From: a virus
Strand: one strand, 5' to 3'
Virus genome (UHGV): UHGV-0069791
DNA length: 15,754 nucleotides
The position numbers were made by a program, and so were the translations under genes. Shown here piece after piece: positions 1,604-2,656 of the stretch (positions are counted from its first letter, which is position 1; each line of letters opens with the position of its first letter). The notes beneath the pieces were generated by a model. The model had not been told where the DNA came from and searched no databases. It worked only from the letters and a program-made list of their open reading frames with translations.

Positions 1604-2656
1604 ATGAAAAATACTGTAAAAATAAACAGTGTTGATTTAATCAACGCTGATTGCCTGCATTTTATTCAGTCCCTGCCTGATGATTCCATTGACCTGATTG
1701 TTACCGATCCGCCTTACTTCAAGGTGAAACCCAACGGCTGGGACAATCAGTGGAAAGGGGACGAAGATTACCTTAAGTGGCTGGACCACTGTCTGGCCCA
1801 GTTCTGGCGGGTGTTGAAACCTGCCGGAAGCCTTTACCTGTTCTGTGGGCATCGCCTGGCATCTGATATTGAGATCATGATGCGTGAACGTTTCAACGTG
1901 CTTAACCATATCATCTGGGCGAAGCCGTCCGGACGTTGGAATGGGTGTAATAAAGAAAGTCTGCGCGCATATTTTCCTGCCACAGAGCGCGTTCTGTTTG
2001 CTGAACATTACCAGGGGCCATATCGCGGCAAAAGTGACGGCTATGCGGCAAAAGAAAGGGAACTCAAACAGCACATAATGGCACCGCTGATATCGTATTT
2101 CAGGGATGCTCGTGCCGAACTGGGTATAACGGCAAAACAGATTGCCGAAGCCACTGGTAAGAAAAATATGGTTTCCCACTGGTTTGGTGCCAGTCAGTGG
2201 CAGTTGCCGAATGAGGCTGACTACCGGAAGTTGCAGGCACTGTTTTCCCGTATAGCGGCAGAGAAGTTTCAGGAAAAACAACTGGAACAACCACACCACC
2301 AGCTGGTGGCATCTTATGATTCACTGAATCGCAAATATTATGAATTGCTGGATGAGTTTAAAACTCTCCGGCGCTATTTCTCCGTATCAGTTTCCGTGCC
2401 TTATACCGACGTCTGGATGCATAAACCCGTTCAGTTCTACCCGGGGAAACATCCGTGTGAGAAACCGGCGGATATGCTCAGGCAAATAATCAATGCCAGT
2501 AGTCGACCAGGTGATCTGGTTGCTGATTTTTTTATGGGCTCCGGTTCCACAATAAAAGCAGCAATGGCGCTGGGGCGTCGGGCCTTAGGTGTTGAGCTTG
2601 AGTCAGAGCGGTTTAACCAGACAGTGAAAGAGATAAACGAGCTGGTGGGGAAATAA
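1604..2656 (+). CDS. DNA N6-adenine methyltransferase, beta-class (N6_N4_Mtase type), orphan
   Basis: Motif IV DPPY ([10 protein letters not shown]) near the N-terminus and motif I FxGSGST (FFMGSGST) near the C-terminus, the circularly permuted order typical of beta-class amino-methyltransferases. The central target-recognition region carries an HTH-like stretch ([13 protein letters not shown]). No restriction endonuclease gene nearby. Confidence 0.9.

Follow-up and report, generated by a model that had tools for sequence, protein, structure and literature searches.

The DNA examined here is the 15,754-nucleotide (nt) virus genome UHGV-0069791 (the whole of this stretch is called the window), which is the late region of a lambdoid prophage: a Q antiterminator gene, an adenine methyltransferase gene, and a holin gene follow one another on the plus strand. 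The subject of this analysis is the methyltransferase gene (1604..2656; 350 amino acids [aa], ATG to TAA), a member of the M.EcoGII family of beta-class N6-adenine methyltransferases, together with two features directly upstream of it, a conserved, structured, noncoding 5' leader RNA of ∼140 nt that ends at the start codon (1466..1603) and a small open reading frame (ORF) for a 67-aa winged helix-turn-helix (HTH) protein (1250..1453). Positions are those of the window, and features lie on its plus strand unless stated otherwise. The enzyme itself is of a known kind whose prototype is sold commercially; what is new here are its two companions, both of which had been missed in a preliminary description of this DNA.

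The methyltransferase gene and its target specificity

As the preliminary description had recognized, the product of 1604..2656 carries the motifs of a beta-class amino-methyltransferase in permuted order. Catalytic motif IV, DPPY (aa 35 to 38; 1706..1717), comes first, followed by the target-recognition domain and then by the FxGxG-type S-adenosylmethionine (SAM)-binding motif I, FFMGSGST (aa 309 to 316; 2528..2551), and both motifs are invariant in the family alignment. The Pfam profile PF01555 (N6_N4_Mtase) is covered over its whole length with an E value of 1.9e-42 and 146 bits against a cutoff of 26.7. The solved beta-class enzymes that match the protein, M.RsrI, M.MboIIA, CcrM, and DpnA (E values of 1e-14 to 1e-24) and an unnamed methyltransferase (9c3u/8urk), do so in both the N-terminal catalytic half and the C-terminal SAM-binding half. 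These profile and structure matches are far above chance.

An HTH-like segment had also been proposed in the recognition region (aa 173 to 194; 2120..2185), and it was found again in two ways. An AlphaFold model of the enzyme, made from a shallow alignment (pLDDT of 63 overall and ∼60 to 81 across residues 160 to 230), served for the secondary structure of the recognition domain only, where it places helices at residues 146 to 173, 177 to 184, 190 to 194, and 204 to 223; the second and third of these lie in the segment. The published AlphaFold model of M.EcoGII has a four-helix-bundle recognition domain containing an HTH, and we predict with moderate confidence that a domain of this type is present in the window protein (residues ∼160 to 237).

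Among the ORFs of the 15.7-kb window, no endonuclease gene lies beside the methyltransferase, as it would in a Type II restriction-modification system. The other sizeable ORFs are all lambdoid or HK97-like phage genes, and the methyltransferase is the sole PADLOC match in the window, all of which agrees with its earlier designation as an orphan without a cognate nuclease. Gene integrity, family membership, and genomic position are direct observations. The reading frame runs uninterrupted over its full length, and no catalytic or family-invariant residue has been lost. By homology, we predict that the product is an active beta-class N6-adenine methyltransferase that belongs to the M.EcoGII family and is an orphan.

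The gene is 100% identical to genes of Escherichia phages PhiR40_1 and PhiR55_1, which makes the enzyme an ordinary member of a known family, and it is 96 to 99% identical in phages Ayreon, cdtI, mEp460, and SfV (orf48), with 98.6% in Ayreon, whose listed host is E. coli K12. A megablast match to the gene was obtained in 1,265 of 5,426 complete E. coli genomes. Published relatives in lysogens look inert: the homologue in strain EC958 (ST131) was judged inactive by reverse transcription-PCR (RT-PCR) (PMC4659465), and no methylation motif was obtained for the O111 homologues (PMC6602927). This lack of detectable methylation could be taken to mean that the gene is being carried along, inactive or decaying, in a cryptic prophage, but the silence of relatives in lysogens is explained by terminators and Q dependence, and the intact frame, the complete set of catalytic and invariant residues, the full identity to the PhiR40_1 and PhiR55_1 genes, the near identity to that of Ayreon, and thousands of conserved copies make such decay extremely improbable.

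The window protein is collinear with M.EcoGII over the full length at 81% identity and with the reconstructed ancestor Anc291 at 89%, and it is 71% identical to SUPREM. Identity to M.EcoGII is 89% in the N-terminal catalytic region, 77% in the recognition domain (residues 160 to 237), and 75% in the C-terminal region; the M.EcoGII sequence used was taken from Supplementary Table S1 of PMC11551740 and was machine-read, with a few character errors. M.EcoGII methylates adenine whatever the surrounding sequence, in double-stranded and single-stranded DNA and also in RNA (PMC5778455). The reconstructed ancestors, Anc289 included, down to SUPREM all methylated DNA and RNA, and nanopore mapping of Anc291 and SUPREM revealed no RNA sequence motif (PMC11551740). 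The preliminary description had held that target specificity could not be inferred. The identity to these nonspecific enzymes makes the question answerable by homology (PMC5778455, PMC11551740), and the window enzyme most probably methylates adenines regardless of sequence context. Since no discrete motif is expected upon expression of a nonspecific enzyme, the outcome earlier named as refuting a methyltransferase, the absence of a new methylated motif, is misleading.

A sequence-specific orphan adenine methyltransferase that protects phage DNA against one class of restriction enzymes would agree with the HTH in the recognition domain, with the modest 77% identity of that domain to M.EcoGII, and with the NCBI annotation of the family as "site-specific DNA-methyltransferase." That name is a generic pipeline label and not a test result, however, and the site-mapped members M.EcoGII, Anc291, and SUPREM all lack specificity, with Anc289 active on DNA and RNA. 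The window protein falls inside the range spanned by these tested proteins, and recognition domains recombine freely in the family with the architecture unchanged. We therefore regard sequence specificity as quite unlikely. The pipeline name, borne by the family's database proteins (P0123 to P0240), conflicts with the nonspecificity of the characterized members and needs correcting, and methylome screens that rely on motif finding will miss the M.EcoGII family.

Mosaicism is also seen within the gene. A methyltransferase of an Stx2c phage (L084:3501-4556) shares its first 117 residues with the window protein without a difference, but its recognition domain is almost identical to that of M.EcoGII. 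From such alignments, recognition domains appear to be shuffled within the M.EcoGII family without change of architecture.

A structured leader RNA upstream of the start codon

The ∼140 nt that precede the start codon are better conserved than the gene itself, with 82 to 92% nucleotide identity in the leader versus 72 to 78% in the coding sequence across most genera that keep the full leader. The 150-nt spacer between the small ORF and the ATG contains stops in all frames, and because their positions vary from locus to locus, it is noncoding. A hidden small ORF overlapping the ATG (as ATGA), which an iterated hidden Markov model picked in some loci, was rejected.

The association of the leader with the methyltransferase gene family appears exclusive. 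An exact-pattern scan of IMG/VR returned 122 leader matches, 120 of which are followed by a methyltransferase gene, with the other two at contig ends. A covariance model built from 46 sequences gave one strong plus-strand match per locus, ending at the start codon, with 61 to 163 bits in 70 loci, and nothing comparable elsewhere in 679 kb, where minus-strand matches reached at most 17 bits. The model also matches phages 1720a-02, phiP27, and yong2. By blastn, 2,690 of the 5,426 complete E. coli genomes have the leader, and a single genome can hold up to eight copies. In all sampled records holding most of the leader query, the only annotated feature under the match was the start of the DNA methyltransferase gene, and no such record carried an RNA annotation at the leader.

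Conservation of the leader is accompanied by covariation, which was likewise observed directly. One of the two main conformations, fold Y, consists of helices P0 (1476-1480/1547-1551), P1 (1481-1492/1500-1511), P2 (1513-1518/1536-1541), P3 (1552-1558/1565-1571), and P4 (1573-1578/1592-1597). Scored on a model-based alignment of 69 distinct sequences, 93.5% of cells in fold Y are paired, and double-sided changes occur at 14 pairs, where they cover 101 cells. No shuffle out of 500 reached this, and slid controls gave 31 to 42% pairing. P1 covaries at 8 of 11 pairs, and one pair of P2 occurs as CG in 37 sequences, UA in 15, AU in 11, and UG in 5. RNAalifold run on the raw MAFFT alignment had produced a poor, mixed consensus and was replaced by explicit helices and the covariance-model alignment.

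Alternative pairings are conserved as well. P1ext (1475-1480/1516-1521; AUGGGC/GCUCAU) is 99.3% paired, and 27 of 27 one-sided changes in it keep pairing. P3ext (1546-1552/1573-1579; GGCCCAC/GUGAGCC) is 84% paired, with one pair found as CG in 43 sequences and as UA in 8. The long-range pairing P5 (1529-1533/1598-1602 plus 1535-1539/1591-1595), in which GGUCA..AAGCG pairs with CGCUU..UGAUC, is 89.6% paired; if formed, it would leave the last six nucleotides 5' of the AUG covered. When the window sequence is constrained to fold Y or to fold X, the other main conformation, its minimum free energy is -61.1 or -61.3 kcal/mol, respectively. Two pseudoknots, GGUCAC with GUGAGCC and UGUG with CACA, were examined by eye; the variants gave them no support.

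Could the conserved 150 bp act as DNA, for example as an operator for the winged-helix protein, as a promoter, or as a recombination linker between phage modules? P1 is also an inverted repeat in DNA, an upstream TGTG..AAT resembles an extended -10 element, and junctions in lambdoid mosaics often lie in conserved intergenic DNA. Such an element would not account for compensatory changes in four separate helices, including the nonpalindromic P2, nor for the many G.U pairs, which work on the plus strand only and so point to RNA; the minus-strand scores quoted above tell the same way. The leader also persists where the winged-helix gene is absent, and its position is fixed, ending exactly at the AUG. 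A DNA-level function is accordingly improbable.

Searches of existing collections did not recover the leader. No Rfam family matched over the whole window at the gathering threshold, and when 980-1700 was scanned at an E value of ≤10, none matched within 1454-1606 (4,227 families, Rfam 15). A minus-strand match to STnc130 at 1095-1231 scored 24 bits against a cutoff of 55 and was rejected as chance. A literature search found no publication describing the leader or a riboswitch, induction data, or the gene pair upstream of stx. We conclude that the leader is well supported as a structured RNA that is unusually widespread and apparently has not been described before; it would be one of the rare structured RNA elements still to be newly found in the best-studied bacterium.

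The AUG of the methyltransferase gene is not preceded by a canonical Shine-Dalgarno sequence. Directly 5' of it stands UGAUCC (1598..1603), whose TGATC is invariant or at least 90% conserved, and which we take to be complementary to the sequence GGAUCA at the 3' end of 16S rRNA. UGAUCC may be an atypical ribosome contact that the GGUCA element of P5 can mask. The same nucleotides include a GATC (Dam site) directly before the start codon (1598..1602), which is conserved in at least 90% of leaders.

In Xenorhabdus and Photorhabdus loci (L137 to L164), the leader is shortened, and only a P1-like hairpin is kept, ∼80 to 100 nt 5' of the methyltransferase gene. In several of these loci the hairpin is followed by a T-run, as in an intrinsic terminator, and in several the gene begins with a GTG a few codons past an in-frame stop.

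The winged-helix ORF and the mobile cassette

The small ORF (1250..1453) belongs to phrog_331 (PHROG E value of 5e-26). It lies directly 5' of the leader and the methyltransferase gene on the same strand in loci from Escherichia to Photorhabdus, and it was present in 82 of the 84 loci fetched first, almost all of which are from close relatives among viruses, in 110 of 115 viral loci selected by pattern, and in at least 54 of 80 loci from diverse Enterobacterales genomes. Pfam, NCBIfam, and PADLOC gave only subthreshold winged-helix matches for it (MarR, TrmB, and DprA). AlphaFold predicts a winged helix of H-H-H-β-hairpin topology (pLDDT of 88), for which Foldseek returned generic winged-helix matches only (E values of ≥4e-3); the best superposition was with the Z-alpha domain of ADAR1, followed by TrmBL2, IclR, MarR, PefI, and SelB. 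As a companion of the methyltransferase, the gene appears not to have been described before.

The 67-aa protein might form a holoenzyme with the methyltransferase, either as a targeting or regulatory subunit that directs it to substrate RNA, rRNA, or particular DNA regions or as a restraint. Its position immediately upstream on the same strand in most loci would suit such a partner, as would a fold whose relatives, the Z-alpha and SelB domains among them, bind nucleic acid, and M.EcoGII does methylate RNA. There is also a precedent in the M.EcoPA8orf6770P-PNB-2 holoenzyme. About one-quarter of the 80 diverse genome loci lack the small ORF, yet keep the leader and methyltransferase, which makes the small protein accessory and not required, and M.EcoGII is fully active alone. 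Moreover, two alleles of the small protein that are only 51% identical both occur beside 99%-identical methyltransferases, which argues against a tight, coevolving interface; recombinants between the alleles exist. The precedent itself involves an MT-A70 enzyme without similarity to the PF01555 enzyme of the window. On balance, a partnership of this kind seems rather unlikely.

The small ORF and the leader travel with the methyltransferase gene. In nucleotide comparisons with phages that have unrelated Q genes and different holins, homology to the window extends from ∼1053-1104 to ∼2620-2800. Whatever the Q type, the block starts at a tR'-like intrinsic terminator (1109..1129; GCCGCTGAGCGGT plus a T-run) found by a terminator scan, and it ends near or shortly beyond the 3' end of the methyltransferase gene. 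There the top match of the same scan, another intrinsic terminator (2663..2689; GGCCACGTCAGGTGGCC plus a T-run), lies just after the stop codon. These two terminators mark the 5' and 3' edges of the cassette, and the equivalents of both are annotated as terminators in phages Ayreon and SfV. A second terminator-like hairpin (1167..1193) stands 5' of the small ORF, and a consensus scan found no promoter-like site between it and the start of that ORF.

A common order, consisting of Q, the small ORF, ∼150 nt, the methyltransferase gene, and then either a holin gene or tRNAs and stx, is found in PhiR40_1, Ayreon, SfV, the Stx phages 1720a-02 and phiP27, and Hafnia phage yong2, the last of which represents a SUPREM-like clade that also has the cassette. 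We conclude that the terminator(s), the small winged-helix ORF, the structured leader, the methyltransferase gene, and the closing terminator constitute a mobile cassette and that, in lambdoid phages, it is inserted in the late operon after Q/pR'/tR' and ahead of the lysis (or stx) genes.

Where the small ORF is absent, the slot between tR' and the leader holds unrelated cargo, occupying ∼500 to 2,500 bp 5' of the methyltransferase gene (L086, L089, L107, L111, L124, L129, and other loci). Examples include membrane proteins and a large protein of 823 aa with a methyltransferase-like N terminus. The slot looks like an insertion hotspot.

Predicted expression, proposed role, and known systems

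The gene order on the plus strand agrees with the earlier placement of the methyltransferase gene between a presumed late promoter and the holin gene in a late unit, here taken to be Q-dependent. The Q antiterminator gene (68..448) is identified by PF06530 (E value of 2e-51) and by a distant match to the solved structure of Q21 (6p18; E value of 7.5e-9). A candidate for the late promoter pR', TTTACA-16-TATGCT (1045..1072), was found by a consensus scan with 9 of 12 matches and is located in Q-specific DNA, just 5' of the block common to phages with unrelated Q genes. The first lysis gene downstream of the cassette encodes a P21-type holin (2724..2939; PF04971, E value of 2e-35) and is followed, in order, by a DUF1327 gene, lysozyme, Rz/Rz1, a Rha-family gene, terminase, portal, a ClpP-capsid fusion, and tail genes. 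A tRNA scan of the window found none.

Several neighboring genes have features of their own. Between Q and the presumed pR', a lipoprotein-like gene of 148 aa lies on the minus strand (533..979), belongs to phrog_3152 without a Pfam family, and has a signal peptide in which a lipobox-like ...ISGC is seen; this is the only Q allele that it accompanies. It is accompanied by the best promoter-like site of the region (998..969, minus strand; 10 of 12 matches) and a hairpin at 491..510, and it looks like a moron expressed in the lysogen. The holin starts with MKSMDK, which contains two Met codons, and the lysozyme (3358..3891) has a hydrophobic N terminus (residues ∼8 to 27); presumably, the former corresponds to the pinholin/antiholin pair of P21 and the latter to signal-anchor-release (SAR) endolysins, and we take the two genes to suggest a pinholin/SAR-endolysin cassette. 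Between holin and endolysin lies a gene of the DUF1327/YdfR family (2944..3294) that is found only in some related phages. A single ORF (10361..12316) is a fusion of two domains, one of a ClpP-type prohead protease and one of a major capsid protein. The ∼800 bp at 5223..6033, between the Rha-family gene and the small terminase subunit gene, hold no convincing ORF and probably contain cos or the packaging site. PhiR40_1 has a second methyltransferase gene in its early/nin region (L001, 1274..1927), annotated as DNA N-6-adenine methyltransferase, so that this phage would have two adenine methyltransferases predicted to be expressed at different times.

For the role of the cassette we think it probable that a nonspecific orphan methyltransferase of the M.EcoGII family is made late, under leader-controlled translation, and serves anti-restriction. 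In a lysogen, transcription from pR' would stop at tR' and the toxic enzyme would stay silent. After induction, Q-modified RNA polymerase would pass through all terminators, and the enzyme would be made late, while progeny DNA accumulates, so that replicating and packaged DNA would become broadly methylated. In the next host, restriction by Type I, Type III, and many Type II systems would then be less effective. The mutually exclusive folds of the leader would free or sequester the last nucleotides before the AUG and thus limit or time translation, keeping methylation within tolerable bounds; the leader and the winged-helix protein probably keep the toxic enzyme in check. Nonspecificity, toxicity, and silence in lysogens are taken here from literature on relatives: M.EcoGII is deleterious under constitutive expression and silent in its own lysogen (PMC5778455). 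We infer that expression is late and depends on Q, that the enzyme counters restriction, and that the leader controls translation; the same applies to any part played by the winged-helix protein. The preliminary description had proposed either an anti-restriction or an epigenetic function. The former is plausible, and the latter is unlikely in a lysogen, given the silence of close relatives in lysogens and their toxicity upon expression (PMC5778455, PMC4659465, PMC6602927).

Several points weigh against this interpretation. The assignment of pR' relies on a weak consensus match (9 of 12), the leader could be an ON or an OFF switch, and the inverted repeat of P1 could in principle be a DNA operator. 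The AlphaFold model of the methyltransferase is of low confidence (pLDDT of 63), its recognition domain differs from that of M.EcoGII at 18 of 78 positions, and few substitutions can change the specificity of a methyltransferase. The activity of this exact protein is predicted from its relatives. The published enzymes were assayed without the upstream winged-helix protein, which could alter substrate choice in the phage; for another methyltransferase of an Stx phage, a partner of this kind shifts the target to 16S rRNA (PMC10810198). Finally, DNA with 80% N6-methyldeoxyadenosine transformed E. coli 10^4- to 10^5-fold less well, so that full hypermethylation may be harmful to the phage. The same observation suggests that dosing matters.

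A more far-reaching version is tentative, and we hold it to be possible without favoring it. In it, the M.EcoGII family would have a cis-regulatory RNA switch of its own, of a new class, in the form of the leader, which would gate the translation of a toxic, nonspecific methyltransferase whose start codon lacks a Shine-Dalgarno sequence, responding to a signal tied to the chemistry of the enzyme (SAM/S-adenosylhomocysteine, binding of the enzyme, or N6-methyladenosine in the leader), and the winged-helix protein would be a second layer, as a targeting or restraining subunit. If this were true, the commercial "nonspecific" enzyme would be no more than the catalytic core of a phage system under regulation, by which the degree of progeny DNA methylation is tuned.

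Whichever of these holds, an enzyme family that is able to modify nearly every adenine and is toxic on expression is present in roughly half of complete E. coli genomes. The leader and the winged-helix partner offer handles on its silencing and dosing, in the form of mutable helices and a deletable ORF, and they may explain why the enzyme is difficult to express.

Among known systems, the D12-methyl motif of Weinberg et al. 2017 is reportedly a conserved folded RNA directly 5' of a phage-type DNA adenine methyltransferase gene. It presumably differs from the leader described here in preceding another class of methyltransferase (D12, PF02086), and the Rfam scans of 1454-1606 gave no match to it.

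The closest parallel to the winged-helix ORF is M.EcoPA8orf6770P-PNB-2 of an Stx phage, in which a small winged-helix gene also lies immediately 5' of the methyltransferase gene; its two genes are cotranscribed, and the partner changes substrate choice (PMC10810198). It differs in its MT-A70/M.EcoGV-like catalytic subunit, where the window has a PF01555 enzyme, in its location in the early region near int, and in the preference of the holoenzyme for 16S rRNA (PMC10810198). We considered whether this "two-subunit" methyltransferase of the Koudelka laboratory is the same system and rejected the idea because both the enzyme family and the locus are different.

Within the family, M.EcoGI/M.EcoMV (EC958 prophage Phi4) and M.Eco95JB1I/II are likewise prophage orphans that are predicted to be nonspecific and are silent in lysogens, as judged by single-molecule real-time sequencing and RT-PCR. 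Anc291 (89% identity) and SUPREM (71%) resemble the window enzyme in being active on DNA and RNA without a motif and differ in being synthetic, hence uninformative on natural regulation (PMC11551740). The natural prototype is M.EcoGII itself, from a prophage of E. coli O104:H4 C227-11 (GenBank EGT69837.1; Murray et al. 2018, PMC5778455), which is also a beta-class, prophage-borne orphan of ∼350 aa, collinear with the window protein, with DPPY, an HTH-containing four-helix recognition domain, and then FxGxG. The two differ at the 18 of 78 recognition-domain residues noted above, and the leader and small ORF lie outside the published M.EcoGII constructs and descriptions. The enzyme of phage 1720a-02 is 92% identical to M.EcoGII, and in its locus Q, the small ORF, the leader, and the methyltransferase gene are arranged as in the window, which indicates that the clade of the prototype has the same architecture.

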